The notes under the pieces are model-generated. The model made no database searches and was not told the origin of the DNA. It saw only the letters and a program-made list of their open reading frames with translations. From Nitrospirota bacterium (GTDB lineage: Bacteria > Nitrospirota > 9FT-COMBO-42-15 > HDB-SIOI813): a stretch of 64,000 bases of DNA. The stretch covers positions 1,391 to 65,390 of the forward strand of contig JACRGV010000005.1 in assembly GCA_016212215.1 (NCBI GenBank), in the 5' to 3' direction. Made by a program: the position numbers and the translations under genes. Of this stretch, positions 36,401 to 53,067 are shown piece by piece (the stretch's first letter is position 1; every line of letters begins with the position of its first letter).

Positions 36401-38843
36401 GCCAGGCCCTTACCGTTGGCGGTACGGCTTTACCTTCTGTCCATGTTCTGTCCCCGTCAAATAGTGTGTCTAATGATTTTGATGATGCTCCGGCACACAC
36501 TTCCACCAGAGAATCATAAAGCGCATAAGAGGAGTACTTACGCAAGTTTCCGTTAATTATCCACGCGTCAATCGCTGAGACATATCCTTCATATTCTTTC
36601 TGGGACATATTTCTAAGATAGTTGTCGAGTTCTCCAAGGCCGGCAAATCTACGAAAATCAATGAAGCATTCTTCTGAAATATAATCCCCGATATTAGAGG
36701 CACCTAAGTATATAGGCACTGTCCTCGCTTCAAAACAATCGAGAATCTTTTCTGTAATGTAACCGGCAGACAGCGTCTGATGGTTAGTGTTCTCAAAACA
36801 TAGGCTGTAGCGGTATTGTTTCAGTACAGATATTTTTTGACCATCCGGGATTGCACCGCAGTAATTGGTCATTTGGAAAGCTGTTCTGCCGTATACATCA
36901 AAGGGGATTGCCGAGTTTTTAGAAAACCACTCTGCAACCTCAATGCGTTTTGAGTAAAGCTCACCTGGTACATGAGAATGTTTATTGCCGCTGATCATAC
37001 AGATCGCATTCTTACGGCCCATTAAAGGGTAAAGCAATTCGCGCTGACGCGGCATTTCAGTGACCGGTTCCTTTGTTGATCCATCAGCACGCGGAAATAG
37101 TATCTTCTTGAATCTATTGTCCTGTCCGATAAGCGCATCGAATAGCGTGAAAACATAGTCAAAATGCTTCCAGACACGCTCATCAAATTCACCGGGTAAC
37201 ACAACAGCAGGTTCGAGCATGACAAGGATATTTAAACCAGGCCGCTTGCCCCGGTAACTGAACGAATTGTGATATGCATAATGGTCACATCCTTCTATAG
37301 GAAGTTGAGACCAGAGAATAGATACATTGCCTCTATGAACTTCAGTAACATAATTCGGGCGTAAATGCCCATATACAATATTTATTGTGAACCTGTGCCG
37401 GCTGCCGGGATGAGGGATTACAGTCCTCAAATTAAACTCCTGTTCAAGTTTTGCAAGCTCTCCACGTATAGGTATAGAATGATCTATGGTTGTACAGAAT
37501 TCTTTGCTGACAAATATACCGTTAGTGCGATTATCAAATACCAAAAGATAATCATGCTGTTCCAGAAATTGTACAATTTCATTACCACCGACATTAATCT
37601 CAATGATTATAAGGGATGGCCGATAACGGTTCCAATCATTGCTTTTCAAAACAGCAAGGTCGTAGCCCTCCGCATCAACAGACAGAAAATCTATCTTCTG
37701 CCCTTTAAGGTGTGACTCTAAAATATCAACAAGTTTTACAACAGGAGCCGGCTCTTCAGAGACTAACGCAGCACCATAGATTTTTCCGGCCTGAATGGCA
37801 GCCTGTTTGTTGAAGGAAGAGAGGGTATCTGCCGACATGCGATAAAATGTCATGGTCCCGGCTTCCGGTCCGACACCGACTTTAAGATTGATATCCCGGA
37901 CTCTCTTTTCACAGAGTTTGGCGTGAAGATTAGGTTCGGGTTCTATATTGATACCGCACCATCCTCTATTATAAAACAGCTTGGTGTTACTGATTACATC
38001 CGGGTCATTTGCCCCAATGTCTATATAGACGCCTGTTTTTTTGTGCGATAGCAGGGCATCTATGACCACATCTTCACCGTATTGACTATACGATTTTAGG
38101 AATGAGTTCGGTAATACCTTGGGGACTAACAGTTCACGTTCCATAATGAATTCAATATGGTCGGATGATTTTTCTCCTTTGACCCTCCACCGGACATCCA
38201 TTTCCCATGCTGCTTCAGCCTGCTGTGGAGATACAGGGTCAATCCACAACACATCATAATTTTCAGATAAGAGTTCTGTAAAATCACTGAATTTACTTTC
38301 CGGTATTCCAAGGTATCTTGGCGGTGTATTGTCAGGTTCAACTTCGCACTGGATTTCACGAATCTGCCCTTTTTGGATCATATCTTTGAGGGATTTCAGG
38401 ACAGTAAGGTCCATCCCCTGCAAATCTGTAATCAGCGTGTCTATTTCCTGAATGTTATTGGTTATACAAAAATCATGAAGATTTATTGCAGGTACTTTTA
38501 TCTTCTTTTGTGAAGTAAGCAAGCCGCTTATCATGTGCCCAAACTCAGGGTTAGGCATGCCGAGAGAAGAAGCAGGGTCCCAATTTGTCGTAATTGTAAA
38601 CTCTACGTCCTCCCCGCTCTTTTCTGTCAAAGCCCCGTAAATAAATTTTACATTGGGATCATTTTTATACATGTTGCCGGCATTTACCACTTTATCCGGA
38701 TTGGCATCAAAGCCATAACACATATCGAAATATGGTCTGATGCGGCTGAAGTTGACTAAATTGTGAATTCCACAATAAAACAATATTTTCATCGGCAAAC
38801 CTCTCATAGTGTTTTCTATTGTTGTAAACTGTTTATTTTGCAA
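33417..38843 (-). CDS. Giant multi-domain protein (1808 aa): 2x FkbM-type methyltransferase - GT10-like fucosyltransferase motif - CgeB-like GT - GT2 - TPR.
   Basis: FkbM motifs (GVYIDIGANDPDVISNTKLFYNRGWCGINIEPEP). GT10 signature YRYSLCFENTNHQTLSAGYITEK. CgeB tail (NIGDSIGSDDHKISKRIFEIPGCRGFLLT). GT2 core (IIVLAYNQIQYTRLC...LLLVDNGSTDGT). C-terminal TPR. Confidence 0.8.
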   Translation of the reverse strand: MQNKQFTTIENTMRGLPMKILFYCGIHNLVNFSRIRPYFDMCYGFDANPDKVVNAGNMYKNDPNVKFIYGALTEKSGEDVEFTITTNWDPASSLGMPNPEFGHMISGLLTSQKKIKVPAINLHDFCITNNIQEIDTLITDLQGMDLTVLKSLKDMIQKGQIREIQCEVEPDNTPPRYLGIPESKFSDFTELLSENYDVLWIDPVSPQQAEAAWEMDVRWRVKGEKSSDHIEFIMERELLVPKVLPNSFLKSYSQYGEDVVIDALLSHKKTGVYIDIGANDPDVISNTKLFYNRGWCGINIEPEPNLHAKLCEKRVRDINLKVGVGPEAGTMTFYRMSADTLSSFNKQAAIQAGKIYGAALVSEEPAPVVKLVDILESHLKGQKIDFLSVDAEGYDLAVLKSNDWNRYRPSLIIIEINVGGNEIVQFLEQHDYLLVFDNRTNGIFVSKEFCTTIDHSIPIRGELAKLEQEFNLRTVIPHPGSRHRFTINIVYGHLRPNYVTEVHRGNVSILWSQLPIEGCDHYAYHNSFSYRGKRPGLNILVMLEPAVVLPGEFDERVWKHFDYVFTLFDALIGQDNRFKKILFPRADGSTKEPVTEMPRQRELLYPLMGRKNAICMISGNKHSHVPGELYSKRIEVAEWFSKNSAIPFDVYGRTAFQMTNYCGAIPDGQKISVLKQYRYSLCFENTNHQTLSAGYITEKILDCFEARTVPIYLGASNIGDYISEECFIDFRRFAGLGELDNYLRNMSQKEYEGYVSAIDAWIINGNLRKYSSYALYDSLVEVCAGASSKSLDTLFDGDRTWTEGKAVPPTVRAWQFISNPVMWSWKHLSSASPPELYNNKIIREQLISRIQGLMVPAVRDHKFSLIRKKPAIKVLVAGAKYNSGNAQRGYDYNWWNMYDALNRFEDVQVQFYDFVTEAQQRGVAGMSDRLMEIVRKEQFDLFLYSPFNIHADILPEALRSITDHTDTQTIIWMNDDRHSFDYNAQHWAPCVDHIITTSHEDIGKYQQAGFGHKVIKSQWAFNPFTYQQMPGVRTRDMSFVGSAKDNRSDIIEKIRQNRFAIDVFGFGWPGSMDIPYQDMVRIYNQTKINLNIGDSIGSDDHKISKRIFEIPGCRGFLLTTPADHLEEYYEPDREVVLASSPEELIDKSMYYLSHVHEREVIAQRGYERTIAEHTWTHRLLGIFNHVGFPANAKTLPHVSPSPFLQSIPPAPVNSLSSSIDTLQSNNLGDNESIMTSIIVLAYNQIQYTRLCVESILHYTTGHYELLLVDNGSTDGTYEYFESVKTFHPNTRIIRNYQNRNVEYLGNYVASLTLGKYIVAVTNDTIVHEGWLHNFIGQIESAPDIAMVGPRSNNISGPQAAQAEYDTLEAYQTFAAEWGKNHKGSNFETQRVVGMLYIIKKEILERIGGWDPDLPTNGRDGGYGFSDDDLTLRLLLAGYRLIVANDVFIHHFGSVTTSRYRADMFGPSQNINKEKYFIKLNKNERIEVGQQGKLTLMPYEPDDLIPVAENTVIRFPRIAIVERGGGTSIPADHLRSYTSIAEFYRGEIISPGGDPIQPWLIETMTKGQYDFIVLIDKKLNPSQEKVRAIIDIALGYPDAAITVPTGNYAPLTHAHRTGNGKSVEIIQYADMSISVINGKLIRPCIQGLAISNNDEEMFWFLQRRVRGEGFFIIKAGGIVVDADIPCNHHSYDTHTLPEQLVQDKKLTEAISIYKDDLSKDPTFAESLYKLACIAKELHNISEALQYAVDSLEIDPHYIQTYIFLSRYFLEQGDMKDAEDVIRLANLKQPGNPEVQQVVAEFEQRKNNSY

Positions 38844-39972: not shown

Positions 39973-41088
39973 TCAAGGACGGAAAAGCTGACGTTGATTC
40001 GGATCAATTAAATCCTCGCTTGTAAATACTTCGGAATAAGGTACCGGGAGCGGTTTGCCATAAACATTTTTTGCCACAATATCAATAAATTCATTGTTTT
40101 CACCAATAAGACACTTAGGAGTATATTTCCCGAACCACTTAACACTTAAACCCCTTTCGATAATATCTTTTAATGGCTCCTTAAAAAAATTCCCAAGCGA
40201 AATATGGATGTAAGGGCATGGCATCACATCACCATACTTAGTAATTGAAACCATTCTTTTGACTGCTATGCAGCCTAAATCAAGACCATACGACGGAGTC
40301 ATATGTGTAAACACAGGATATTTTTTCTCGAGTTCTCTCACATAATCTGCATCATCTTGAGTGATAAGGACATCAAAATTACCTTCCCATGCCCCAACGG
40401 GCTTAGCATATGTGACATAAACACCTATTCCCCTTGCTTGCGAAAACTCCAATAAATCAAGAAACTCCTGTGATCTGGCCCTGTGCTTTGTGAGCACCGT
40501 TTGAAAAATCAGATTTAATCCTACGTCCAATGCTGCATCAACAGCCCTCATGATTCTTTCATACGAATTGTCTTTATGTCTGAATTTATCATGTTCCGTT
40601 GGTGAAAAGTTATCAAGGCTCAACTGAATTTTATCAATGCCTATCTTTTTCATATGTTTCGCTCTTTTTTCATCCAATAGCCATCCATTAGTATCAGAAG
40701 TTATGTAGAATTTATTTGGGTTGATTGCCTCAACTATATCATCAAAATCCGGGAATATTAATGGTTCGCCGCCTGTGATTACAATATGCGCAAGTCCCAT
40801 TTCGTCAGCTTGTCGTGAAAGTTCTTTTACATCTTTAGGTGTAAAAAATCTCCGCGTGTCAGCTTCACGTTCTTTCTTGGTTTTGTGCTGGAATTTATCT
40901 ATTGAACAATGTTCACAAGTAAAATTGCACGTATAATCATATTGGAATTGAAGTATCGCTATGCTCTCTCCATTTTTAATTTTATCATCATATTTCATGA
41001 TTTTATCATAGACATAAGGTTTTTCTTTTTTTAGCAGGTTCCTTTTATCTGTTTCATGAGCTTTTACTTGTTCTTGTTGAGTTGACAT
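39973..41088 (-). CDS. Radical SAM protein with a SPASM/twitch-like C-terminal Cys cluster.
   Basis: CNFTCEHC (CxxxCxxC), then the later cluster ...LDLGCIAVKRMVSITKYGDVMPCPY. Confidence 0.75.
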   Translation of the reverse strand: MSTQQEQVKAHETDKRNLLKKEKPYVYDKIMKYDDKIKNGESIAILQFQYDYTCNFTCEHCSIDKFQHKTKKEREADTRRFFTPKDVKELSRQADEMGLAHIVITGGEPLIFPDFDDIVEAINPNKFYITSDTNGWLLDEKRAKHMKKIGIDKIQLSLDNFSPTEHDKFRHKDNSYERIMRAVDAALDVGLNLIFQTVLTKHRARSQEFLDLLEFSQARGIGVYVTYAKPVGAWEGNFDVLITQDDADYVRELEKKYPVFTHMTPSYGLDLGCIAVKRMVSITKYGDVMPCPYIHISLGNFFKEPLKDIIERGLSVKWFGKYTPKCLIGENNEFIDIVAKNVYGKPLPVPYSEVFTSEDLIDPNQRQLFRP

Positions 41089-41152: not shown

Positions 41153-42817
41153 CTATATGGGGACATTAAACATATCCACATAGTTGCGCCAAAAAGGCTT
41201 TTCTGTTGCAATCATCTTTGCAGTATTCATGTATTGTTGTGCTTTTCCCGAATCACCGAGTTTTTCGTAGCATTTCGCTGCATAGTAATATGCAATGGCA
41301 TGGTCATTTTTGGCTCTTATTGCATTCTCAAATCCATCCAACGCCATTTTGTAATTGCCCAAACGGAAATCGCTGTTTTCTACAAGATTAAGCTCCAGAT
41401 TTAAGATATAGGCCATTTCCTGTATATATTCAGCGGTAAAATCCTCAGTTTCGACAATGGCTTTTTTGTAATCGCAATCAGTATAATTACCTTTAAGATA
41501 ATTATTATTAAGAGATATATCAAACATTTCACTTCCTACAAGAGGGGTTGCAACATTTATTCTAAACCAGTTTGCATTAATGGTTTTTAAAAATGACCTT
41601 GTATCCTCAATATCCTGCTTCGTTTCACCCGGAAGCCCTATTAATATATTCACATCCGTATATATTCCAAGTTCACGGCAATCGTCAGCTACGCGCTTTA
41701 CTATTGAAAGGTTAAGGGGTTTATGCATTACTTCCTTTAAAACTCTATTGCTTCCCGATTCTATAGACAAAACAAGCTGATTAACCTCTACACTTTTTAA
41801 GGCCTCAAGCATCTTTCTATCAAGAGCATATAGAGCCAATGAATTAGGGAAAAAAGCAGTTAATTGAAATTCATGCAATATATCAATGAGTCCCATGGCT
41901 CTTTTTTTATCCGCCATGAAGTGATCGTCCTGAAAAATAATTGTTTTTGCCCCATATTGGTCTCTTAGGCGTATAAAATCTTCTCTGACTCTGTTGATGC
42001 TGTAATAGCGCATCATTCTTCCGTGGACCGTGTGTGATGAGCAAAAACAACAACGGAAAGTACACCCCCTTGAGGTCATCACGGGCATATTTTTCTTTTT
42101 TCCGTTTATAGAAAGGTAAGCTGATATTGTTGGATTTAATCTATATTCATCCGGATCTAAAATACCATAATCATAAAAAGGTATTTCATCAAGGTTTTCA
42201 ATAAAATCATATTGAAATGTCTGTCCGTTTTCAATCTTTCCCCGCGTAATCCACGAAGGATTTTCTTCAAGGTACCTCAATTTATCATCGGCTTCCACAA
42301 GACCTAACAGAGACTTTTCGCCCTCACCATAGCAAAGTGCGTCAAAGCATGCGCTGTTTCTAAATATTTCTCTATACATATTTGTTGGCACACCGCCACC
42401 TGCAATTATAACAGCGCCGGGAAATATATCACGGCAGCACTGTGCAATATCCAGCATATTTTGGTAGGATGGCGCAAATAATGCGGATATGCCTATTATG
42501 CTGGGAGCATACTCCATCCAAATTGGATTTGAAATAGAGCTATAGAAAAACTCTGCAAAAGAACTAAATTTAAAACTTTCCAATTTATTTAAAACAATGT
42601 TAAAATCCAAAAGCTTGGTTTCTGCTGCAGTATGCTTTTTCACATACGAGCTCAAAGATAGTACACCTAGATAAATATCTGTAATGACTGCTCCATAGCT
42701 TCCTGATTCTTTTATTACTATTTTTACATTGGCAGGAGGATTGACAAAATCCTCATAATTAATATTAGGCGGAACTATAAATAAAATTTTATCCATTATT
42801 ATCAACCCCATCTGCAC
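41153..42817 (-). CDS. B12-binding-domain radical SAM protein (class B methyltransferase-like) with a C-terminal TPR.
   Basis: N-terminal cobalamin-binding-like Rossmann (KILFIVPP...), CTFRCCFC radical SAM motif, C-terminal TPR (AIAYYYAAKCYEKLGDSGKAQQYM). Confidence 0.75.
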   Translation of the reverse strand: MQMGLIIMDKILFIVPPNINYEDFVNPPANVKIVIKESGSYGAVITDIYLGVLSLSSYVKKHTAAETKLLDFNIVLNKLESFKFSSFAEFFYSSISNPIWMEYAPSIIGISALFAPSYQNMLDIAQCCRDIFPGAVIIAGGGVPTNMYREIFRNSACFDALCYGEGEKSLLGLVEADDKLRYLEENPSWITRGKIENGQTFQYDFIENLDEIPFYDYGILDPDEYRLNPTISAYLSINGKKKNMPVMTSRGCTFRCCFCSSHTVHGRMMRYYSINRVREDFIRLRDQYGAKTIIFQDDHFMADKKRAMGLIDILHEFQLTAFFPNSLALYALDRKMLEALKSVEVNQLVLSIESGSNRVLKEVMHKPLNLSIVKRVADDCRELGIYTDVNILIGLPGETKQDIEDTRSFLKTINANWFRINVATPLVGSEMFDISLNNNYLKGNYTDCDYKKAIVETEDFTAEYIQEMAYILNLELNLVENSDFRLGNYKMALDGFENAIRAKNDHAIAYYYAAKCYEKLGDSGKAQQYMNTAKMIATEKPFWRNYVDMFNVPI

Positions 42818-42825
42818 TTTTCATG

Positions 42826-43965
42826 TTAAACCACTTCCAATCCAAAATCTCTCAATATAGCAATATTTATATTTCTATCAAACTTCTGTCGTATGGTCCT
42901 CGCTACTTCATCAGAGTAACTTGCCGCCATTACAATAACCGCATCTACCGGATCGGAGTCAAGTGTATCAGGAGGAACGATGCGAAGATGGGTAGCCGGA
43001 GTATATTTACCCTGTTTAAAGAGTGCAGAGTCAACAACATACTTTATTTTACCGGCTAAATTTATCAGAGAAATAACAGATAGCGTCTGATGCCCGGCGC
43101 CCCATATCGCCACCTGCTTATCCTTAAAACCACCGATATATTCTTCAATATTATTTTTAAGTTGCACCTGACATTTGTAAAAATGCGATATGTCTAACCT
43201 TTCCCTTTTCTTTACAATCGCTGAAATTATGTAATTGTGCCACACTTCATTACACTCAATAATCTCAAATCCATTTAGCCTTAATGTTGCAATTAATGTT
43301 TCTCTGGTGAAATAAAACAGATGATCAGATATAAATTCAGAGAAAAGTTTGTTCCTCAAAATCATATCAAAATTCGGAACCTCAACAAGACCTACAGCGC
43401 CATATGTCAAATTGTTATATATTCCTCTGAGGGTTGAATTTGGGTCAGGCAAGTGCTCAAGAAAATTCAATATATAAAAGGCATCAAATGGGGCATAGTT
43501 TAACCTATCAGTATTGTTTTGCACAAATCCTTTTGATACCTTCAGGCTATTCCGGACACATTGCATCACTGATTCTTCTGAATGCTCCAATCCATAGGCA
43601 TCTGCACCGCATTGCTGAATAACTGACAGATATTCTCCCCGGCCGCAGCCGATCTCGATAACTTTCTTATTTTTAAGAGAAAAAGTTCGCACGAAACTGC
43701 TGAATTGCTTATTCCTGAAATCCTTCATTTCCTCTGAAAAAGCAGCAGCGCGTATAACCTCTTTATAATAAGGGACTGGAGCATTGCTCAGTTGCACCAA
43801 TCCACAACCGGAACACTGACAGACTTCCAGATCAATCCCTCTGTCTCTTTCGAGAGACTCTGCGTCCGGCAAATATTGCGCAGCCCCCGGCATATTCTCA
43901 TATCGTAGCAATGGTTCTTTGAAAAATTTATGCCCACAAACTCTACACTTGTTTATTAATTTCAT
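42826..43965 (-). CDS. NDP-hexose C-methyltransferase-like (TylCIII/Methyltransf_13-14 architecture): N-terminal Zn ribbon plus class I SAM MTase.
   Basis: CRVCGHKF...CQCSGCG zinc ribbon; SAM motif VIEIGCGRGEY. Confidence 0.7.
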   Translation of the reverse strand: MKLINKCRVCGHKFFKEPLLRYENMPGAAQYLPDAESLERDRGIDLEVCQCSGCGLVQLSNAPVPYYKEVIRAAAFSEEMKDFRNKQFSSFVRTFSLKNKKVIEIGCGRGEYLSVIQQCGADAYGLEHSEESVMQCVRNSLKVSKGFVQNNTDRLNYAPFDAFYILNFLEHLPDPNSTLRGIYNNLTYGAVGLVEVPNFDMILRNKLFSEFISDHLFYFTRETLIATLRLNGFEIIECNEVWHNYIISAIVKKRERLDISHFYKCQVQLKNNIEEYIGGFKDKQVAIWGAGHQTLSVISLINLAGKIKYVVDSALFKQGKYTPATHLRIVPPDTLDSDPVDAVIVMAASYSDEVARTIRQKFDRNINIAILRDFGLEVV

Positions 43966-46598: not shown

Positions 46599-48125
46599 TT
46601 ATGAAACTGGCTTTAATAGCCAATCTGACCAGAAGGTGAGAAAGGTTTTTCTGTTTTTATTGTTAAGTACATTGCTATCATTATAAAAGGAGTCGTCTTT
46701 ATAATGTGTTGTTGATATTTCCTCAAATATTGCCCCAAGTGCAGAGCTAAAGCTGTGTTTCATTTCCCTTTCCACTATTACCATTTCTCCGGCCTTACAA
46801 TTTCTTTCTTCCCCGTCAAGGTTTACAGCTAAATCACCATACAATACATGAAATGTCTCTTCCTTCATTTTATGATGATGAATAGGGTGTTTCTGACCCG
46901 GAAGGAGAATAATAAGTTTCTTGCAATATTCACGGTTAATGCAATTTATAATAACAGCACCCCATTCATCAAACATGTCAATTCCATAATGGTGAGATAT
47001 TTCCATTTCGAGTTTATCAGGGAGAACGACTTTACTCTCCATGAGGAGGTGACTTATCTTATTAACAATCTGCAAAACCCTCCCGCGAAGATTAGTTATA
47101 GTAACATCCGTCCGCATAACAGGCTGATTAATCTCAATATCTTTGTTCGCGATAAATTCTGTATATTTAGACATATCGTTTGCTGTAATCTGCATTTCAA
47201 TATTAGGTATTGCTAAAAAGGAATTTTCGATAACGATCCTTTCACCTTTCTTAATCCCGTGTTTCGCAAATACACCCCTTTGCAGTCCCCTTAAATCCGT
47301 CCTCTCCTTTTCTGAACCCTCAAGTCTTTCTCCGGCAACTCCACACATTTCATAAGCCTCCTGTGCGACATCAAGCCATGCAGAAATCTGTTCCGGAGTT
47401 GATGAATAACCGTTTATTGCATATTTCTCTGTTTTTAAACCTACATGCCTCTCAAATACCCTTGCCCCTTTTGCAATTGCAATCTTAATCGCATCCAAGT
47501 TGTCAGGGGACTCATGTGTTGAATAACCTATTTGAATATTTGCATATCTATTTTTCAGCAAGTCAATCTGATTCAATTGCAAATTATTCCTGCCTGTAGG
47601 GTACTCGCCTACGCAATGCATTATGCAAAATTGTTTATCTCTATGTTCAAAGAAAGATACAACCTTATCAATATCTTCAATAGAGGCACCGGCTGTAGAG
47701 GCAATAATCGGTTTATCTGTTTTTGCTATCTTCTCCAACAAAGGCCAGTCCGTGAATGAACAGCTCGCAATCTTAATGATATCGAAATTGTGCTTCTCTA
47801 TTAAATCAACGGCAATTTCATCAAAGGGTGTGCATATTGAAATAAATCCAAGCCTCATAACCTCTTCCTTCAGAAGGGCCTGGTGAGTCTCAGATAGTCT
47901 TGTTTCCTGAAAGCGTTTTACATATTTGACATCAGTCCGGTTTCTATAATCAGGATGAATAAAAGTGTCTATATCTCTATATTGAAATTTAAAGGCAAAT
48001 TTGAAATTATATTTTTTGCAAACATCATACATTCTTCTTATAATTTTTAGACCATGTTCAACATCACCATTATGATTGTTGGCCATTTCGAATATGAATA
48101 GATTGTTAAAGTAATTCATGTTTTT
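46599..48125 (-). CDS. NeuB-family (N-acetylneuraminate/pseudaminate synthase-like) - SAF - cupin fusion protein.
   Basis: MKNMNYFNNLFIFEMANNHNGDVEHG...(NeuB TIM barrel)...SAF-like GVFAKHGIKKGERIVIE...cupin HPIHHHKMKEETFHVLYGDL. The track's MGVSYGDIE prefix is repeat-derived. Confidence 0.75.
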   Translation of the reverse strand, partial: KNMNYFNNLFIFEMANNHNGDVEHGLKIIRRMYDVCKKYNFKFAFKFQYRDIDTFIHPDYRNRTDVKYVKRFQETRLSETHQALLKEEVMRLGFISICTPFDEIAVDLIEKHNFDIIKIASCSFTDWPLLEKIAKTDKPIIASTAGASIEDIDKVVSFFEHRDKQFCIMHCVGEYPTGRNNLQLNQIDLLKNRYANIQIGYSTHESPDNLDAIKIAIAKGARVFERHVGLKTEKYAINGYSSTPEQISAWLDVAQEAYEMCGVAGERLEGSEKERTDLRGLQRGVFAKHGIKKGERIVIENSFLAIPNIEMQITANDMSKYTEFIANKDIEINQPVMRTDVTITNLRGRVLQIVNKISHLLMESKVVLPDKLEMEISHHYGIDMFDEWGAVIINCINREYCKKLIILLPGQKHPIHHHKMKEETFHVLYGDLAVNLDGEERNCKAGEMVIVEREMKHSFSSALGAIFEEISTTHYKDDSFYNDSNVLNNKNRKTFLTFWSDWLLKPVS

Positions 48126-48140
48126 CATTTCAATATCTCC

Positions 48141-48268
48141 ATAGCTCACCCCCACCCTGACCCTCCCCCCTCAAGGGGGAGGGGATAGATACGCAACGCC
48201 CTATCCATTCAGTTGCTCTTCTGATCTCCCCTCCCCTTGCGGGAGGGGATTATGGGGAGGGGGGGTTA
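48141..48268. repeat. GC-hairpin repeat cluster (long form plus two additional hairpins).
   Basis: atagctcacccccaccctgaccctcccccctcaagggggagggg...tcccctccccttgcgggaggggattatggggaggggggg. Confidence 0.85.
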
Positions 48269-49592
48269 CAAATTTCCTGACAGTATCTATAACGTATTCA
48301 ATCATCTCTGCCGTCATTCCTGGATAGACTCCAACAAGGAATGTGTTTCTCATGATCATGTCAGTATTATCAAGTTTTCCTGCAATACGATAACCATCGC
48401 CGCTCTTCCTCATATCATCAAAACAGGGATGTTTCAGAAGATTCCCTGCAAATAGCATCCTAGTCTGTATATTTTTTGATTCAAGGTGGTTTACAATCAT
48501 ATTCCTCGTAAATCCTGCATCCTCTCTAACTGTAAGCATAAAACCGAACCATGAAGGGTCTGAACATTCCGCCGGTTCAGGAAGAATAAATCTGTCAGAG
48601 AGGTCTGCCAGACCATCATGCAGGAGTTTCCAATTCAGCTTTCTTGCTTCAATAAAAAACGGCAGTTTCTCAAGCTGGGCACAACCTACTGCTGCCTGCA
48701 TATCCGTGACCTTCAGGTTATAACCAAAATGTGAATACACATATTTATGGTCATAACCGTGCGGTAAATCCCCATGCCTCTGTCCGAAACGGTTGCCGCA
48801 TCTATTATCCCTGCCGGGATTGCAGCTACAGTCACGCCCCCAGTCACGAAATGATGCGAGCAGTCTTTTAATATGCCCGTCATTGGTATAAACCGCCCCG
48901 CCTTCTCCCATAGTAATATGGTGCGGCGGATAAAAACTCGATGTAGCTACATTCCCAAAAGTTCCTGTATATCTCCACTCTCCATTATAAAAATAGCGGG
49001 ATCCGAGTGAATCACAATTATCTTCAATAAGCCACAGGTTATGCCTGTTACAAAAATCCATTATATAATTCAGATTAAATGGGTTTCCAAGTGTATGTGC
49101 AATCATGATTGCCTTTGTTTTCTCAGACAGGGCATCCTCAAGTTGAGTGCAATCAATATTGTATTCAGGAATTGTCACATCAACAAACACCGGTATTGCG
49201 CCATATTGAATAATAGGTGCTACTGTAGTTGGAAACGCCGCTGCTACAGTAATAACTTCATCGCCCCTTTTAATTCTCCTCTCACCAAGCTTAGGTGAAG
49301 TAAGGGCCATAAAGGCGAGTAAATTTGCCGATGATCCCGAATTTACCAGTAACGAGTATTTAACCCCAAGAAACCGGGCAAATTCTTTTTCAAACTTTTC
49401 TGCATACCGGCCGGCAGTGAGCCAGAAATCAAGGGAAGAGTCAACAAGATTAATCAGCTCCTTTTCATCAAAGTACCTGCCTGCATAGTTAATCTGATCT
49501 CCGGCATTAAATATACTTTCCCTTCCGTATACCATTTGATAGTACTGAATGGTCTTTAACAGGATATCCTCTCTAAGCTCCTGTTCGCTCAT
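48201..49592 (-). CDS. ddhC: CDP-6-deoxy-D-xylo-4-hexulose-3-dehydrase (E1; DegT/RfbH family); the C-terminus reads through a repeat.
   Basis: MSEQELREDILLKTIQYYQMVYGRE...AGRYAEKFEKEFARFLG...SGSSANLL is RfbH-like. The final TPPPHNPLPQGEGRSEEQLNG is repeat-encoded. Confidence 0.8.
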   Translation of the reverse strand: MSEQELREDILLKTIQYYQMVYGRESIFNAGDQINYAGRYFDEKELINLVDSSLDFWLTAGRYAEKFEKEFARFLGVKYSLLVNSGSSANLLAFMALTSPKLGERRIKRGDEVITVAAAFPTTVAPIIQYGAIPVFVDVTIPEYNIDCTQLEDALSEKTKAIMIAHTLGNPFNLNYIMDFCNRHNLWLIEDNCDSLGSRYFYNGEWRYTGTFGNVATSSFYPPHHITMGEGGAVYTNDGHIKRLLASFRDWGRDCSCNPGRDNRCGNRFGQRHGDLPHGYDHKYVYSHFGYNLKVTDMQAAVGCAQLEKLPFFIEARKLNWKLLHDGLADLSDRFILPEPAECSDPSWFGFMLTVREDAGFTRNMIVNHLESKNIQTRMLFAGNLLKHPCFDDMRKSGDGYRIAGKLDNTDMIMRNTFLVGVYPGMTAEMIEYVIDTVRKFVTPPPHNPLPQGEGRSEEQLNG

Positions 49593-49605
49593 CTGAATAA
49601 TCTCG

Positions 49606-49708
49606 TTGCTCACCCCCACTCTAACCCTCCCTCGTCAAGGGGGAGGGAATTTTCGTTTCCATCTGCCCCCCTATCCCCTCCCGTCTTATTAATTAGCGAA
49701 GGGGGAAT
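49606..49708. repeat. GC-hairpin repeat (two hairpins).
   Basis: gctcacccccactctaaccctccctcgtcaagggggagggaat...cccccctatcccctcccgtc...gaagggggaat. Confidence 0.8.
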
Positions 49709-49718: not shown

Positions 49719-49770
49719 ACTTCTTACTTCTGCCTTTCTTGCTTCTTACTTCTAACTTCTTACTTCTGTT
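49719..49770. repeat. Heptanucleotide tandem array.
   Basis: cttcttacttctgcctttcttgcttcttacttctaacttcttacttctg. Confidence 0.75.
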
Positions 49771-50843
49771 TACATATCCTTAATATATTCATTTATCTGA
49801 TTCAAACACAAGGCCCTTGAGCCAACGCCCCCAATGTACCCCTTTGTCCACTCAACAATGCTTTGGAGTGCCCTGTCAAGGTTCCATCGCGTCCTCCACC
49901 CCAACATCATCCTTGCTTTTGAAGAATCAAGTTTTAAATATTTCGCCTCAGTCAATTGCTTTGATTTTTTGACTGAATATGCAGCACCTTTTCCCCACAT
50001 AAGGCAGAATATTTTTACTACTGACTCAATATTTTTTGTCTCTATATCATCTGTACCGAAGTTCCATGCATCTGCTGATGCCGGGTCACCTTCGTATAGC
50101 CTTTGCGAAAGCATCATATAACCGGCAAGCGGTTCAAGCACATGCTGCCATGACCTGGTAAAATTCGGGTTCCTGATGATAATCTTTTTATTATCCGAGA
50201 TCGCCCTGATACAATCAGGGATGAGCCTGTTCTCAGCCCAGTCACCTCCGCCTATTACGTTACCTGCCCGGGCAGTTGCAATAAGGACGCGATGTTTTTT
50301 GTAGTCAGACAAATTAAAAAATGAATGACGATACGATGCAGTAACCATTTCTGAACACACCTTGCTGCCTGAATACGGGTCATGGCCGCCAAGTGTATCG
50401 TTTTCCCTGTATCCCCATGTCCACTCTTTATTCTCATAACATTTGTCGGTGGTTACATTGAGTACTGCCCTTATGTTTTTAGTGTTCCTTACTGCCTCCA
50501 AAAGATTAACCGTACCCATTACATTTGTTGAAAATGTTTCTACAGGGTGTTCATAAGAGTGGAGGACGAGAGACTGTGCCGCCAGATGGATTACAATATC
50601 GGGTTTGCTTTCCTGAATTGCGGTTAAGAGGTGTTTATAATCTCTTATGTCACCCTTTATTGAGTGAACCGATTCTCCTATCTTGCATAATTCATATAAA
50701 GACGGTACGGTCGGTGGATCAAGGGCGTAACCTGTTACCTTAGCCCCCATAGCCGTTAGCCAGAGTGACAGCCACGACCCTTTAAATCCGGTGTGTCCTG
50801 TAATAAATACCTTTTTCCTGTCCCAGAATTCTTTCTTTATCAT
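49770..50843 (-). CDS. ddhB: CDP-glucose 4,6-dehydratase.
   Basis: MIKKEFWDRKKVFITGHTGFKGSWLSLWL... The track ORF extends 57 codons upstream, overlapping ddhA, so the internal ATG was chosen. Confidence 0.85.
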   Translation of the reverse strand: MIKKEFWDRKKVFITGHTGFKGSWLSLWLTAMGAKVTGYALDPPTVPSLYELCKIGESVHSIKGDIRDYKHLLTAIQESKPDIVIHLAAQSLVLHSYEHPVETFSTNVMGTVNLLEAVRNTKNIRAVLNVTTDKCYENKEWTWGYRENDTLGGHDPYSGSKVCSEMVTASYRHSFFNLSDYKKHRVLIATARAGNVIGGGDWAENRLIPDCIRAISDNKKIIIRNPNFTRSWQHVLEPLAGYMMLSQRLYEGDPASADAWNFGTDDIETKNIESVVKIFCLMWGKGAAYSVKKSKQLTEAKYLKLDSSKARMMLGWRTRWNLDRALQSIVEWTKGYIGGVGSRALCLNQINEYIKDM

Positions 50844-50868
50844 AAATATTATTTTTAGTTCAGATGAA

Positions 50869-51645
50869 CTACTCCCATATTTTCCATGGTGGTTTTCCGG
50901 ATTTCCAGAGTTCCTCCAGATATACTTTGTCACGCATCGTATCCATAGGCTGCCAGAAACCAAAATGCTTATGAGCCATAAACTGTTTATCCCTTTGTAA
51001 TCCCGGCAGGGCATTTACCTCAAGATTCGGGTCATTCTCATGCAGATAATCAAAGACTTCAGGCTGCATAACAAAAAAACCGCCATTAATCCAACTGCCG
51101 TTGGCCTTAGGCTTCTCTTTAAATCCATCCACCACGCCGGCGCTGTTTATATGCATTGCACCGAATCTGGAAAGCGGCTGAAGGGCGGTGACTGTGACAA
51201 ACTTACCATGAGATTTATGGAAGTTGATCAGTTCTGTTATGTTTATGTCTGCAACCCCGTCACCATAAGTCAGCATAAACGGTTCATTCCCTACATATTT
51301 TTGTATACGTTTTACCCTGCCGCCGGTCATTGTTTCCAATCCTGTATTGACTAATGTTACTGACCATTTTTCAGCAAAATGCTCGTGTGTATATACCTCT
51401 TTTCCATTCTTGAAATTGAAGGTAACATCAGACTCATATACAAAGTAATTGGCAAAATAGTCTTTAATAACATTTCCTTTATATCCAAGACAGATAATAA
51501 AATCATTAAAACCATAATGGGAATATATCTTCATAATGTGCCATAGAATGGGTTTTTCACCTATCTCTATCATAGGCTTAGGCTTGAGATGAGATTCTTC
51601 ACTGATTCGTGTACCCATTCCACCTGCCAGAATAACTACCTTCAT
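50869..51645 (-). CDS. ddhA: Glucose-1-phosphate cytidylyltransferase.
   Basis: MKVVILAGGMGTRISEESHLKPKPMIEIGEKPILWHIMKIYSHYG is a near-invariant RfbF N-terminus. Confidence 0.9.
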   Translation of the reverse strand: MKVVILAGGMGTRISEESHLKPKPMIEIGEKPILWHIMKIYSHYGFNDFIICLGYKGNVIKDYFANYFVYESDVTFNFKNGKEVYTHEHFAEKWSVTLVNTGLETMTGGRVKRIQKYVGNEPFMLTYGDGVADINITELINFHKSHGKFVTVTALQPLSRFGAMHINSAGVVDGFKEKPKANGSWINGGFFVMQPEVFDYLHENDPNLEVNALPGLQRDKQFMAHKHFGFWQPMDTMRDKVYLEELWKSGKPPWKIWE

Positions 51646-51660: not shown

Positions 51661-53067
51661 TCACGCTGTTGCAAGTCTTCTTTTTCCGGCAATCCTGTTG
51701 ATAACCGCCAATCCCTTTTTTCCATCAGTATTAAACGGGTCTAAGGATAATCCAAGTTTAAAAAACTCTTCTGCAAGAACATTCTGCTTTATCTCATAAG
51801 CAGCAGCCCCAAGAAGATTCAACGCATCTATGTAACTGTGGTCCGTCCGTATCAATCTGTTCATCTGTTCACTGTACTCTGAATCAGTTAAACATAAACT
51901 CACATACTTAAACATCTCCGACATTCTTATTTCAAAAGTATGTTTCTCCATGACCTTTTCTTTTGCAGAATCTGCAATCTTTCTTCTTTCATCCGGGTGA
52001 GAAAGGAAATATCTTATATGGCCTTTTAACTCTTCAATATTCCTGTAACTGACTATCTCCCTGCCTGATGCAAATAGCTCTTCAACATCCTCACGAAAAT
52101 CTGTAATCAGAAAACCTCCTGAAGCAGGTACGTCAAACAGCCTCTGATTAACAGCAGTCCTTAATTGCATTCTTGATATATTGAGATTGATCTTGGTATT
52201 TTTATATATTGAGGCAAGCCCTGAAAAATAATTTACCTCATTGAGATAATGTCTCTTATCAACTACATCAAGCCATTCCCATCCGCCGCATACTGTTATA
52301 TTAAAAGGCTTTAATGCCCTGATAGTCTCAGTCCTGTGAAGGACATTAGCCATATACTCTACTGAATTATAAAACAGGGTCTTAATATCATTTGAGGGAA
52401 ATCTAAATGGAAAACCGCAATCATTAAATGTTGTCTCAGATATTAATTCTATTGATATTCCTGATCTGTTTCGATATGAATTGATAATCCTTTTAAAAAT
52501 ATTATCAAAATCAGCAGGTTTGTTCTGCCACCTGTCTTTCAGTGTATTGAAATATGTATTAGCCTTTTCTCTATCTAATTTCCCTACAAAGACAATATCC
52601 TTTAATCTGTCTTTATATTGTTCTGTTCCTTCACTAAATCGTGCAGGGTTTGTTGCAAGCGGCAGGAAAAATGCCTTCTTAATCCCTGAATATCTCAAAT
52701 CTCCAACATAAGATTTATCTGTTACAAACACTACAGTAGTCGGTGATATATTTTCTTTATTCCAGTTCTCAAGCGTATCCGGCCTGTCCACGTACCATAA
52801 GGCAAGAGGTATTTTTAATAATGCCGCTATCCTTGGAATAAAACCCCTCTCGTCAATTCCATTGCCGTTCACCATAAACAGGAGGTCAGGCATAAATGTT
52901 AGAAGCTCAGATACCCTTTCAATAATATTATAGGGAAGTGTTATGTCAGGGTTTGCAGGGTCCCTATCAAGGCTTATGACCTTTATCTTATGTCCCAGGC
53001 TCTGAAATGCATTAACACATTCAGGTTCTATAAATCCCGCTGAGTCTTGAAACACTGCAATTTTCAT
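51661..53067 (-). CDS. CgeB-family (DUF3880/Glyco_trans_1_2) glycosyltransferase with a C-terminal TPR.
   Basis: NISRMQLRTAVNQRLFDVPASGGFLITDFREDVEELF is the CgeB signature; TPR tail. Confidence 0.7.
   Translation of the reverse strand: MKIAVFQDSAGFIEPECVNAFQSLGHKIKVISLDRDPANPDITLPYNIIERVSELLTFMPDLLFMVNGNGIDERGFIPRIAALLKIPLALWYVDRPDTLENWNKENISPTTVVFVTDKSYVGDLRYSGIKKAFFLPLATNPARFSEGTEQYKDRLKDIVFVGKLDREKANTYFNTLKDRWQNKPADFDNIFKRIINSYRNRSGISIELISETTFNDCGFPFRFPSNDIKTLFYNSVEYMANVLHRTETIRALKPFNITVCGGWEWLDVVDKRHYLNEVNYFSGLASIYKNTKINLNISRMQLRTAVNQRLFDVPASGGFLITDFREDVEELFASGREIVSYRNIEELKGHIRYFLSHPDERRKIADSAKEKVMEKHTFEIRMSEMFKYVSLCLTDSEYSEQMNRLIRTDHSYIDALNLLGAAAYEIKQNVLAEEFFKLGLSLDPFNTDGKKGLAVINRIAGKRRLATA

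Follow-up and report, generated by a model that had tools for sequence, protein, structure and literature searches.

The closest described counterpart of the locus considered here is the gastriose pathway of Mycobacterium gastri, which involves the ThDP enzyme MyGE, the 'MygI aldolase' and the reductase MygF, and whose product "gastriose" is a 3,6-dideoxyhexose with a C7 acyl branch and no ulosonic acid (Steitz et al. 2022, PMC9306805). The same work reported that the YerE-like enzymes ErwE, MMAR_2332 and M. gastri MyGE accept functionalised C4-C8 2-oxo acids and put forward a 'unifying scheme' for acyl-branched sugars, in which a cluster-encoded 'aldolase' is predicted to make a polyhydroxy 2-oxo acid donor, which the YerE-like enzyme joins to CDP-4-keto-3,6-dideoxyglucose (PMC9306805).

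The window analysed here, i.e., the whole 64-kb stretch of DNA, derives from an uncultured Nitrospirota bacterium, and the ten genes listed in an earlier sequence-only reading are all present, contiguous and on the minus strand. Families were assigned with Pfam profiles and NCBIfam equivalog cut-offs, and scans for absent genes covered window ORFs with a length of 120 aa or more. The combination had been regarded as undescribed, which does not hold for the core, as this matches the gastriose/caryophyllose class known from mycobacteria, but does hold for the radical-enzyme decorations and the flagellar setting; these are the new part, the core chemistry being known. With moderate confidence, the cassette is suggested to make a CDP-activated long-chain acyl-branched 3,6-dideoxyhexose of this class, which TPR-glycosyltransferases would put on flagellin.

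The flagellar setting

The cluster is bounded by fliW/flgL on one side and flagellin on the other, and glycosylation genes of about 30 kb, all on one strand, exactly span the gap from fliW/flgL to fliC-flaG-fliD-fliS. The flagellin-side flank comprises flagellin, flaG, fliD and fliS, while on the opposite side fliW and flgL are followed by flgK, flgN, flgI and flgH.

24441-25559, minus strand: flagellin (Flagellin_N and Flagellin_C), presumed acceptor
25747-29880, minus strand: one gene with CgeB-like, two GT2 and TPR domains (domain profiles)
29877-31160, minus strand: GT2-TPR gene (domain profiles)
31414-33123, minus strand: GT9 gene (domain profiles)
33417-38843, minus strand: one gene with two FkbM, GT10-like, CgeB-like, GT2 and TPR domains (domain profiles)
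51661-53067, minus strand: CgeB-like glycosyltransferase (DUF3880 and Glyco_trans_1_2)
53270-55819, minus strand: protein with two GT2 domains and TPR repeats (domain profiles)
57013-57492, minus strand: fliW, far-side island boundary
57924-58814, minus strand: flgL, far-side island boundary

Seven genes for TPR and/or glycosyltransferase proteins accompany the sugar cluster between fliW/flgL and fliC, and fusion of TPR to a glycosyltransferase is a typical trait of transferases acting on proteins such as flagellin. The protein encoded at 53270-55819 has a 66% identical orthologue immediately upstream of ddhA on Nitrospirae contig L038, and an independent metagenome contig carries flagellin, GT2-TPR, GT2 and ddhA in this order. 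Domain profiles detected neither Wzx/Wzy nor an ABC transporter nor an initiating phosphotransferase in the island, and neither Maf nor another known flagellin transferase family was identified. The location of the sugar cassette in a flagellin glycosylation island is hence supported, and gene context makes flagellin, with its Ser- and Thr-rich central domain, a reasonably probable acceptor of the sugar. The glycosyltransferase at 51661-53067 falls within the interval 38816-53067 given in the sequence-only reading and was unmentioned there.

CDP-sugar core and probable branching unit

The core genes and those of the putative branching unit are the following:

50869-51645, minus strand: ddhA, glucose-1-phosphate cytidylyltransferase (TIGR02623, 395 bits versus cut-off 300, full length)
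49770-50843 (start corrected), minus strand: ddhB, CDP-glucose 4,6-dehydratase (TIGR02622, 491 bits versus cut-off 278)
48201-49619, minus strand: ddhC/RfbH, E1 CDP-6-deoxy-L-threo-D-glycero-4-hexulose-3-dehydrase (NF011936, 730 bits versus cut-off 423)
47094-48107, minus strand: NeuB-type (PEP-condensing) TIM-barrel plus SAF/AFP-like domain (Pfam NeuB 3e-41; PDB 3g8r 4.6e-118)
46602-47090, minus strand: cupin domain, predicted aldose-ketose isomerase (Cupin_2 6.5e-10)
45925-46521, minus strand: HAD phosphomonoesterase, NT5C-like (PF06941, 25.7 bits)
44021-45928, minus strand: YerE-like ThDP-dependent carboligase (three TPP domains)
45272-45373, minus strand: in-frame 34-codon insertion in the TPP gene (REP-like palindromes in the DNA)

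As ddhA, ddhB and ddhC all exceed their NCBIfam equivalog cut-offs, their earlier assignment as the CDP-4-keto-3,6-dideoxyglucose core was confirmed. For ddhB an ORF of 49770-51014 had been listed, in which the TIGR02622 alignment begins at residue 63; the true start is almost certainly Met58 of this ORF (ATG at 50843), which abolishes the 146-bp overlap with ddhA. DdhC possesses the E1 hallmarks, i.e., the cysteines C202...C264-x-C266-x7-C274 (C-x61-C-x-C-x7-C) and a His replacing the PLP lysine (motif 'HHITMGEGG'), and its last ~20 C-terminal residues are encoded by a REP-like palindrome (48226-48248). Scanning window ORFs of 120 aa or longer revealed no ddhD/E3-like gene for the reductase recycling E1, in agreement with what had been noted before.

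The closest solved relatives of the TPP enzyme are JanthE (8rph, 3e-117) and PpYerE (5ahk), which bears out the proposed analogy to YerE, and the enzyme shares 43% identity across its entire length with its counterpart in the M. gastri locus. Its motifs are HEQ (residue 48) and GDG-x24-NN (residue 486), and the 34-codon insertion, missing from five orthologues, locates to the linker joining the N-terminal and middle domains. A genuine IlvB was considered and rejected, as the score against the ALS (IlvB) equivalog is 379, below the cut-off of 538, and no ilvN occurs among window ORFs of 120 aa or longer.

The NeuB-cupin fusion (ORF 46599-48155, with the NCBI start probably at 48119) was found as described earlier: NeuB and Cupin_2 both match, and the SAF/AFP-like part is accounted for by full-length alignments with NeuB models and PDB 3g8r, the Pfam SAF profile itself giving no score. 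The NeuB domain retains both metal-binding His and the Lys, Ser and Glu that bind PEP, is devoid of an equivalent of the ManNAc-binding Arg314 and scores far under the NCBIfam cut-offs for the NeuB and PseI equivalogs. AF2 modelling (pLDDT 84) gives the cupin domain a D-lyxose-isomerase fold, the top Foldseek matches being D-lyxose isomerases with a TM of 0.68-0.72 over the whole domain, and its His/Glu metal site is invariant. The HAD gene overlaps the TPP gene start by 4 bp; its product possesses the full phosphatase motif set (D7, D9, D10, T93, K137 and D153, all invariant) and a fold resembling 5'(3')-deoxyribonucleotidases (AF2, pLDDT 95.7). D-lyxose isomerases use free sugars, which fits uneasily with the need for a phosphatase.

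In other genomes, the TPP gene is present in 33 of 39 non-redundant NeuB-cupin loci, with a gap of less than 1 kb to NeuB-cupin in 27 of these 33, while three of the six loci devoid of it end at contig ends. The order NeuB-cupin, HAD, TPP, with overlapping or abutting genes, is almost invariant across more than 15 bacterial and archaeal phyla. As the same gene order recurs in dozens of unrelated genomes, the grouping is no chance assembly of domains. This HAD gene is always placed between NeuB-cupin and TPP. In the M. gastri locus, the NeuB-cupin orthologue (55% identity) immediately precedes the TPP gene, an HAD phosphatase that is not orthologous immediately follows it, and the NeuB-cupin orthologue is the only aldolase-like gene within 10 kb of the TPP enzyme in both directions. 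Among window ORFs of 120 aa or more there is no CMP-ulosonate synthetase (CTP_transf_3), and the window holds no hexosamine-pathway genes. Considering the conserved unit, the branched M. gastri product, which is not an ulosonic acid, the lack of CMP activation and hexosamine genes in the window and the donor-making enzyme predicted by the published scheme, the NeuB homologue most likely supplies the branch and probably does not, as had been thought, build an octulosonic/nonulosonic-type acid on the dideoxyhexose; NeuB-cupin and HAD are likely the makers of the donor acid.

The accessory module

Four further genes encode putative tailoring enzymes:

42826-43965, minus strand: TylCIII/TcaB9-type sugar C-methyltransferase homologue (Methyltransf_13, Methyltransf_23, Methyltransf_14)
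41153-42817, minus strand: B12-binding-domain radical SAM enzyme with C-terminal TPR tail (B12-binding 37.8 bits versus cut-off 32.1; Radical_SAM)
39973-41088, minus strand: radical SAM enzyme with partial SPASM/twitch domain (Radical_SAM and SPASM)
38816-39895, minus strand: extended SDR, UXS-like (Epimerase family)

The C-methyltransferase matches TylC3 (4rv9, 6e-17) and TcaB9 and possesses four Zn cysteines and an EH motif. The B12 radical SAM enzyme (motif CTFRCCFC) attains no NCBIfam equivalog cut-off, its closest solved structure being the diol-dehydratase AprD4 (2.6e-14), while the twitch/SPASM enzyme carries a CX3CX2C motif at residue 54 plus three conserved Cys towards its C-terminus and, profile versus PDB, matches MoaA (1e-23), SkfB, BlsE, PqqE and BtrN. 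For the SDR, the best PDB match is UDP-glucuronate decarboxylase (1e-30), and Trp185 occupies the position of the catalytic Tyr ('CYDEGKR' aligns with 'AWGEGKR'). SDR orthologues accompanying the rSAM/C-methyltransferase module carry W or L there, and as this state is kept in orthologues of other phyla (52-84% identity) it characterises the family and does not indicate decay. The suggested analogy of this epimerase to YerF is therefore doubtful, and YerF-type ketoreduction is unaccounted for, as the sole SDR is devoid of the catalytic Tyr. The C-methyltransferase, both radical SAM enzymes and the Tyr-less SDR are a travelling accessory module.

Proposed pathway, alternatives and known systems

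The suggested pathway assumes that DdhA, DdhB and DdhC (E1), assigned to their families by profile, convert glucose-1-phosphate to CDP-4-keto-3,6-dideoxy-D-glucose. The cupin would turn a ketose, more likely a ketose phosphate (e.g., xylulose-5-P), into a lyxo/manno-configured aldose, which the NeuB domain would condense with PEP to a 3-deoxy-2-ulosonic acid (phosphate), whereby the HAD enzyme would take off the phosphate; fold, conserved residues, synteny and the analogy to the Kdo and Neu5Ac-9-P pathways suggest this step. Next, the YerE-like ThDP enzyme, judged by homology and the published scheme, would decarboxylate the 2-oxo acid and attach the acyl anion to the CDP-ketosugar at C4, yielding a tertiary alcohol bearing a 1'-keto-2'-deoxy-polyhydroxyalkyl branch. 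With a C7 branch the residue would be C13H24O9, with a calculated mass of about 324 Da, and with a C8 branch it would have about 354 Da. The accessory module may tailor this product by methylation and/or deoxygenation, oxidation or cyclisation, and glycosyltransferases and FkbM methyltransferases would, based on gene context, assemble the flagellin glycan. The earlier idea of a heavily tailored branched deoxysugar is supported, the core resembling the gastriose/caryophyllose class, and an acyl-branched dideoxyhexose is quite likely the product.

Alternatively, the dideoxyhexose may be freed from CDP and condensed with PEP by NeuB to a new octulosonic/nonulosonic acid on flagellin, as the sequence-only reading had proposed. 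NeuB-family enzymes usually act on 6-deoxy or N-acyl hexoses freed from nucleotide sugars, nonulosonic acids are a classic decoration of flagellins, and a NUDIX hydrolase, frequent in related cassettes, could free the sugar. However, the window holds neither a NUDIX gene nor a CMP-ulosonate synthetase, the tightly linked TPP enzyme would be left without a role, the same core in the M. gastri locus yields a C7-branched 3,6-dideoxyhexose and not an ulosonic acid, and the NeuB/PseI equivalog scores are far under the cut-offs, which renders this route highly improbable. Two separate sugars within the same glycan, i.e., a yersiniose-type C2 branch made by the TPP enzyme from pyruvate and a Kdo/KDN-like acid made by NeuB-cupin and HAD, would agree with the use of pyruvate by YerE and its in vitro acceptance by MyGE and JanthE, and isomerase, synthase and phosphatase are combined as in Kdo and KDN biosynthesis. 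This is improbable given the near-invariant linkage of NeuB-cupin, HAD and TPP and the missing cytidylyltransferase for activation of the ulosonic acid; moreover, the known gastriose and caryophyllose branches show the 2'-deoxy pattern expected of a decarboxylated 3-deoxy-2-ulosonate.

The same sugar could end up on an acceptor other than flagellin (LPS, a lipid-linked glycan, an S-layer protein), in which case the flagellar neighbourhood would be incidental. None of the other 41 cassette loci has flagellar genes within 10 kb, hence the cassette itself is not flagellum-specific, and the mycobacterial one serves lipooligosaccharide; several loci pair it with GtrA and GT2, suggesting a polyprenol carrier, and the island holds a GT9 gene, of the heptosyltransferase family typical of LPS cores. 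The one-strand block fitting exactly between flagellar genes, the TPR-fused transferases, the second contig with flagellin and ddhA and the lack of detected Wzx/Wzy, ABC transporter and initiating phosphotransferase genes in the island nevertheless make this unlikely. A decaying or inactive cassette was considered in view of REP-like elements in coding sequence (the TPP-gene insertion, the REP-derived ddhC tail and four REP copies within the GT2-TPR gene) and the Tyr-to-Trp exchange of the SDR. Yet all reading frames are intact, with insertions in frame and at a domain linker or terminus, the exchange is conserved in orthologues and the other catalytic motifs are intact; decay is thus very improbable.

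Compared with known systems, the acyl-branched dideoxyhexose pathway suggested here shares with the Kdo and Neu5Ac-9-P/KDN-9-P pathways the succession of isomerase or epimerase, PEP-dependent synthase and HAD phosphatase and a NeuB fold with metal and PEP residues kept. There is no cytidylyltransferase here, the ulosonic acid being proposed as a consumed 2-oxo-acid donor and not as a transferred sugar, and the isomerase is a cupin of lyxose-isomerase fold and not, as for Kdo, the SIS-domain KdsD. Yersiniose A biosynthesis (DdhABCD, YerE, YerF) likewise involves CDP-4-keto-3,6-dideoxyglucose as acceptor and ThDP-dependent C4 branching, but YerE takes pyruvate to give a C2 branch, and that pathway has an E3 (ddhD) and a canonical reductase, neither of which was found here. 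As in flagellin glycosylation islands (Pse/Leg of Campylobacter and Helicobacter; Pseudomonas), sugar and transferase genes, including TPR-bearing transferases, lie between flagellin and hook-associated genes, whereas those islands provide CMP-nonulosonic acid or dTDP-sugars and the sugar here is predicted to be CDP-derived and C-branched. Caryophyllose (M. marinum MMAR_2331/2332) and erwiniose (Pectobacterium ErwE/ErwI/ErwJ) formation also combines a YerE-like enzyme, a cluster-made hydroxy-2-oxo acid and CDP-4-keto-3,6-dideoxyglucose; there the donor acid comes from pyruvate aldolases (HpcH/citrate-lyase-like or BphI-like), here from a predicted PEP-dependent NeuB-type synthase fused to an isomerase, together with a phosphatase. 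The gastriose locus differs in having neither a TylCIII-type C-methyltransferase nor radical SAM enzymes, in an SDR retaining the catalytic Tyr, in a HAD_2-subfamily enzyme encoded after and not before the TPP gene, and in serving a lipooligosaccharide and not a flagellar glycan. It nonetheless shares ddhA, ddhB, ddhC, NeuB-cupin, the YerE-like TPP enzyme, a phosphatase beside the TPP gene, an SDR and methyltransferases, as well as the predicted product class, i.e., 3,6-dideoxyhexoses whose C4 bears a long polyhydroxyalkyl branch.

Gene content of the cluster and its dideoxyhexose core

The sugar-pathway genes listed in the sequence-only reading were all confirmed to locate to 38816-53067 on the minus strand. 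The interval comprises eleven genes on this strand, separated by mainly short or negative gaps, and a scan of it for promoters and terminators returned nothing above shuffled expectation that would define operons. Three of its genes are referred to below by position:

51661-53067, minus strand, CgeB-like glycosyltransferase
41153-42817, minus strand, B12-binding radical SAM enzyme
38816-39895, minus strand, extended SDR

The three genes attributed to the formation of CDP-4-keto-3,6-dideoxy-D-glucose each exceed the respective NCBIfam equivalog cut-off (ddhA, 395 bits versus 300; ddhB, 491 versus 278; ddhC, 730 versus 423), and this part of the earlier assignment holds. The ddhC product carries the E1 signature, i.e., the Fe-S ligands Cys202 and Cys264-x-Cys266-x7-Cys274 together with the motif 'HHITMGEGG', in which a histidine replaces the PLP lysine, and hence was assigned as a 3-dehydrase and not as an aminotransferase. 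As listed, the ddhB reading frame overlaps ddhA by 146 bp; the likely start is Met58 (position 50843), the family alignment beginning at residue 63. Downstream (3') of ddhC follow the NeuB-cupin fusion, a 198-aa HAD protein and a three-domain TPP enzyme, after which genes for a methyltransferase (Methyltransf_13/23/14), a B12-binding radical SAM enzyme with a TPR tail, a radical SAM/SPASM enzyme and the extended SDR are found. The reported absence of the E3 reductase gene (ddhD) was borne out, as neither Pfam searches of the window nor a motif scan covering it and 42 related loci (L001-L042) identified an FNR-type or 2Fe-2S reductase. The Mycobacterium gastri locus likewise lacks E3, which documents that clustering of E3 is not obligatory; since M. 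gastri makes a 3,6-dideoxy sugar although its locus is devoid of E3, an unlinked reductase must suffice.

The window is further interspersed with a family of about 25 GC-rich palindromes, which are 19-33 nt in length (most 21-24) and read CCCTCCCC...GGGGAGGG, their general form being CCCTCCCC(C)-loop-GGGG(G)AGGG. They look like REP elements and are mostly intergenic, four gaps within the sugar cluster included.

Examples of the palindromes
5814-5834, REP-like palindrome
9992-10015, REP-like palindrome
14160-14182, REP-like palindrome
17508-17531, REP-like palindrome
31216-31237, REP-like palindrome
33349-33371, REP-like palindrome
46554-46576, REP-like palindrome
48161-48184, REP-like palindrome
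49625-49647, REP-like palindrome
53100-53122, REP-like palindrome
57517-57537, REP-like palindrome
61714-61734, REP-like palindrome

Coding sequence is also affected. The TPP gene possesses a REP-like in-frame insertion of 34 codons at 45272-45373 ('...IPPPQIEMTGGGEGE...'), which locates to the linker of the N-terminal and middle domains and is absent from five orthologues. The last approximately 20 codons of ddhC (palindrome 48226-48248; tail 'PLPQGEG') share this REP-like origin, and four copies reside at 54400-55504, within the coding sequence of the GT2-TPR gene. Despite the REP-like sequence all reading frames are open.

The branching enzyme and a putative donor-acid route

The TPP enzyme had been proposed to be analogous to YerE, with a genuine IlvB encoded next to ilvN as the reading to be weighed against it. 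The latter was rejected, considering that the enzyme scores 379 bits versus the 538-bit cut-off of TIGR00118 (acetolactate synthase), that no ilvN or other gene for an acetolactate synthase regulatory subunit was found in the window, and the genomic context. Its closest solved relatives in the PDB are 8rph (3e-117), which is JanthE, a YerE-like enzyme of Janthinobacterium, and 5ahk (7e-78), which we take to be Pseudomonas protegens YerE (PpYerE). Both the catalytic glutamate (HEQ, residue 48) and the ThDP motif GDG-x24-NN are preserved, and the identity to the counterpart from the M. gastri locus amounts to 43%. The enzyme is thus predicted to be a YerE-like ThDP carboligase and not a biosynthetic acetolactate synthase. 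A structure of PpYerE exists according to a review, and the physiological substrates of JanthE are stated in the literature to be unknown.

The NeuB domain of the fusion protein yielded 134 bits versus a NeuB equivalog cut-off of 400 and 132 bits versus a PseI cut-off of 340; with scores that far under the cut-offs and in view of its context, an identity as plain PseI or NeuB, considered already in the sequence-only reading, was likewise rejected. Alignment to the Neisseria meningitidis NeuB revealed that both metal-binding histidines (YSTHE, ERH) are kept, as are the equivalents of E25, K53/Q55 (KFQ), K129, S132, S154, S213 and E234. The equivalents of E134 and N184 are altered, and an isoleucine stands in for Arg314, the residue in contact with the N-acetyl group of ManNAc. 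The conservation of the metal and PEP residues together with the loss of Arg314 suggests that PEP-condensing chemistry is retained, with a different aldose serving as substrate. Among the window ORFs scanned, no CMP-ulosonate synthetase (CTP_transf_3), PseB, PseH, PseG or NeuC was identified, and the window holds no pyruvate aldolase gene.

The cupin domain (residues 356-518) possesses an invariant His/Glu metal site, and its model (pLDDT 84) finds as top whole-domain structural matches the D-lyxose isomerases 2y0o, 7nzo-q and 3kmh/3mpb (E 4e-10 to 6e-9, TM 0.68-0.72), followed by L-ribose isomerases and phosphomannose isomerases. The configuration preferred by NeuB-type enzymes is that common to lyxose and mannose. 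As a minor alternative, the domain might be a ring-opening enzyme like KdgF, which does appear among the structural matches, but far below the lyxose isomerases and covering half of the domain only; the isomerase-like assignment is preferred. The HAD protein belongs to a small family whose members are mostly annotated as 'hypothetical', and the phosphatase-motif positions D7, D9, D10, T93, K137 and D153 are invariant within it. The model is of very high confidence (pLDDT 95.7) and resembles in fold the 5'(3')-deoxyribonucleotidases as well as other phosphomonoesterases of the HAD type.

Judged from synteny, predicted fold and conserved residues, the NeuB-cupin fusion and the HAD protein fit a role in providing a donor 2-oxo acid. 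The suggested route assumes that the lyxose-isomerase-like cupin domain would deliver the substrate for the NeuB-type PEP-dependent synthase, the product of which would be dephosphorylated by the HAD phosphatase and finally used by the YerE-like ThDP enzyme for decarboxylative addition. It is the NeuB, cupin and HAD results and the absence of an ulosonic-acid cytidylyltransferase from the window, taken together, which support this order of steps. Starting from a pentose, the branch would be C7, as it is in gastriose, and starting from a hexose it would be C8, a choice that the sequence cannot fix.

Accessory module, cassette distribution and flagellar setting

For the methyltransferase, Pfam returned Methyltransf_13 (28.4 bits, just under the cut-off of 31.3), Methyltransf_23 and Methyltransf_14 (46.8 bits), and TylC3 and TcaB9 are its best PDB matches. 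With cysteines at 7, 10, 51 and 54 and the EH pair at 170, it is by sequence a remote, architecture-complete TylC3/TcaB9 relative, possessing the predicted Zn-Cys4 N-terminus, SAM core, Methyltransf_14 domain and E-H pair. Enzymes of the TylC3/TcaB9 type methylate the carbon adjacent to a keto group; candidate sites would be C3 or C5 of the 4-ketosugar, or C2' beside the new 1'-keto group. The B12-binding radical SAM enzyme possesses the B12-binding domain and the CX3CX2C core, reaches no NCBIfam subfamily cut-off (best, 144 bits versus 575) and has AprD4, a non-methylating diol-dehydratase, as nearest solved relative; it might either methylate an unactivated carbon or carry out a radical deoxygenation. 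The protein ends in a TPR segment (residues about 485-545), which to our knowledge is unusual for this class; as orthologues encoded outside flagellar loci are about as long, at 550-553 aa, it may be a conserved feature. The SPASM-type enzyme is 41-73% identical across phyla and shares three conserved C-terminal cysteines. Its profile retrieved generic PDB relatives only (MoaA, SkfB, BlsE, PqqE, BtrN), which fix no function; the substrates of MoaA, BlsE and BtrN are nucleotides or sugars.

The SDR is closest to UDP-glucuronate decarboxylase (UXS; 1e-30). Its GxxGxxG motif, Ser/Thr and Lys are intact, but Trp185 replaces the catalytic tyrosine ('AWGEGKR' versus 'CYDEGKR' in UXS). At this position Trp or Leu is found in every orthologue that exceeds about 40% identity, each of which comes from a locus with the methyltransferase/radical SAM module, while the mycobacterial SDRs retain Tyr, as do those of the related loci L001, L002, L035 and L036. 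As the tyrosine is replaced in the enzyme and its module-linked orthologues, the identity as YerF is uncertain, and it is more likely that the Tyr-less SDR works with the radical SAM enzymes. The earlier interpretation of the cluster was supported in part only, the YerE analogy standing and the YerF analogy being in doubt.

The NeuB-cupin protein is part of a family of striking conservation. Its relatives are about 509 aa in length, the best 119 database relatives being 64-81% identical, and named sources include Nitrospirae, Omnitrophica, Desantisbacteria and archaea. The neighbourhoods of five relatives share the window order ddhA, ddhB, ddhC, NeuB-cupin, HAD, TPP, often followed by a NUDIX gene and then by the C-methyltransferase, sometimes the B12 radical SAM enzyme, the SPASM enzyme, the SDR and a glycosyltransferase. 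A scan with one genome per species yielded 36 loci, from Nitrospirota, Omnitrophota, Elusimicrobia, Saganbacteria, Margulisbacteria, Patescibacteria, Ignavibacteriales, Planctomycetia, Lachnospiraceae, Marinitoga and deltaproteobacterial groups, from the archaeal Methanoperedens and Pacearchaeota, and from four mycobacteria including M. gastri. When all loci were scored with the window proteins, 39 non-redundant NeuB-cupin loci resulted, 33 of which hold a TPP homologue; in 27 loci the gap between both genes is below 1 kb, the genes abutting or being separated by the HAD gene alone, and in three of the six TPP-less loci the sequence ends within 1.3 kb of the NeuB-cupin gene. The remaining counts (ddhA/ddhC, 22-23 loci; C-methyltransferase, 22; SPASM enzyme, 18; B12 radical SAM enzyme, 6) identify ddhABC, NeuB-cupin, phosphatase and TPP enzyme as the core and the methyltransferase/radical SAM/SDR block as an accessory module.

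Several loci show peculiarities of their own. A small NUDIX hydrolase gene, absent from the window, usually goes with the methyltransferase/radical SAM module (L002, L003/L004, L010, L015, L016, L018, L019, L027-L029, L031, L032, L035, L036, L039, L042). The cassette copy in L003 is interrupted by toxin-antitoxin-like pairs at 14008-14669 and 8921-9828 (FitA-like/PIN and nucleotidyltransferase/HEPN), which fits a mobile-DNA nature of the cassette. In the Firmicutes loci L025-L028 and L030 (Lachnospiraceae, Eubacterium) the TPP gene lies directly upstream of the NeuB-cupin gene, and window-type HAD, ddhB and ddhC were not detected; another keto-sugar acceptor may be used there.

On one side, the cluster is flanked by a GT2-TPR protein gene, fliW, flgL, flgK, flgN, flgI and flgH, on the other by four more glycosyltransferase/methyltransferase genes, two of them giant, and then by flagellin, flaG, fliD and fliS. 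With sugar-synthesis and transferase genes placed between flagellin and other late flagellar genes, the location within a flagellin glycosylation island was confirmed. About 30 kb of glycosylation genes on one strand, several of them with TPR repeats, fill the fliW/flgL-fliC space, and no polysaccharide export or polymerase genes were detected in this island. The central domain of the flagellin is Ser/Thr-rich. The two giant proteins resemble assembly lines that would build a complex methylated glycan:

33417-38843, giant protein (1808 aa) with two FkbM methyltransferase domains, GT10-like, CgeB-like and GT2 domains and TPR repeats
25747-29880, giant protein (1377 aa) with a DUF3880/CgeB-like domain, two GT2 domains and many TPR repeats

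A metagenome scan with the GT2-TPR protein gave mainly weak, TPR-driven matches of 25-40% identity, and a single contig was informative (L044, Ga0196971_1003000). Over positions 1-5687 it encodes a flagellin C-terminus, a GT2-TPR protein (861 aa), a GT2 protein (588 aa) and a ddhA 70% identical to that of the window, where the contig ends; it provides a second, independent instance of CDP-hexose synthesis encoded next to flagellin. Flagellin is considered the probable acceptor. No flagellar genes were found within 10 kb at any other cassette locus, and the sugar of the mycobacterial counterpart goes to a glycolipid, which argues for the cassette being a portable sugar module that was recruited here to a flagellar island.

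Comparison with known acyl-branched sugar pathways

A unifying scheme for acyl-branched sugars was proposed by Steitz et al. 2022 (PMC9306805), according to which an 'aldolase' encoded in the cluster makes a functionalised 2-oxo acid that is joined to CDP-4-keto-3,6-dideoxy-D-glucose by a YerE-like ThDP enzyme, with YerF-like reduction coming after branching. Products within this scheme are erwiniose (C4 branch), caryophyllose (C6, M. marinum) and 'gastriose' (C7, M. gastri), and the YerE-like enzymes ErwE, MMAR_2332 and M. gastri MyGE were reported to take hydroxylated C4-C8 2-oxo acids (PMC9306805). The M. gastri locus (L024) begins with GtrA, ddhB, ddhC, ddhA, GT2, NeuB-cupin and TPP enzyme, continues with a HAD_2-type phosphatase, two methyltransferases and an SDR with intact Tyr, and encodes a NeuB-cupin protein 55% identical to that of the window. 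No second aldolase-like gene is present within 10 kb on either side, and we infer that this NeuB-cupin gene is 'MygI' of PMC9306805. The proteins of a further locus, assigned to M. ostraviense (L023), are 100% identical to those of M. gastri over the sugar genes compared, though the species names differ. In M. gastri and in the window non-orthologous HAD phosphatases occupy the same place, which argues for dephosphorylation being a required step. The branches of caryophyllose and gastriose are 1'-hydroxy/alkoxy-2'-deoxy-polyols, as expected from a decarboxylated 3-deoxy-2-ulosonic acid after carbonyl reduction, which supports the link of the window to this known chemistry.

A far-reaching joint reading, held tentatively and with less confidence than the flagellin assignment, is that the filament bears an unseen C13-C15 sugar, a 3,6-dideoxyhexose to whose C4 the relay of NeuB-isomerase, phosphatase and ThDP enzyme would deliver a Kdo-like chain. 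The four-gene module (C-methyltransferase, B12 radical SAM enzyme, MoaA-like twitch radical SAM enzyme and Tyr-less SDR) would then rework the branch on the nucleotide sugar by chemistry new for sugars, which might, e.g., methylate an unactivated carbon, remove oxygen through a radical mechanism or close a carbocycle like that of caryose. If this holds true, the cassette, horizontally spread through >15 bacterial and archaeal phyla, would mark a widespread, chemically unknown surface sugar.

In the searchable literature, no paper was found in which acyl-branched sugars are connected with flagellin or their donors with a NeuB-type synthase, and no precedent for flagellin glycosylation with CDP-glucose, acetolactate synthase, thiamine or a branched sugar, or for the combination of CDP-glucose, acetolactate synthase and sialic-acid synthase; as far as this search showed, the present flagellin glycosylation island would be the first to involve an acyl-branched sugar. 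Only few organisms are known to contain higher sugars of the acyl-branched type (caryophyllose, gastriose, erwiniose, aurantose), and the formation of the donors has been worked out only in part. The cassette itself occurs very widely among uncultured bacteria and archaea. The locus and 40 relatives point to one specific, testable donor route via cupin, NeuB-type synthase, HAD and ThDP enzyme, and this route offers a candidate natural donor for JanthE and other biocatalysts of the YerE type; to the conserved radical SAM/Tyr-less SDR module no chemistry has yet been assigned. Essentially, the core of the cluster adds a new member to the acyl-branched dideoxyhexose pathways already known, from which the cluster is set apart by three elements for which no description was found in the searchable literature, namely the NeuB-isomerase/phosphatase donor route, the conserved methyltransferase/radical SAM/Tyr-less SDR tailoring module and the flagellar setting.
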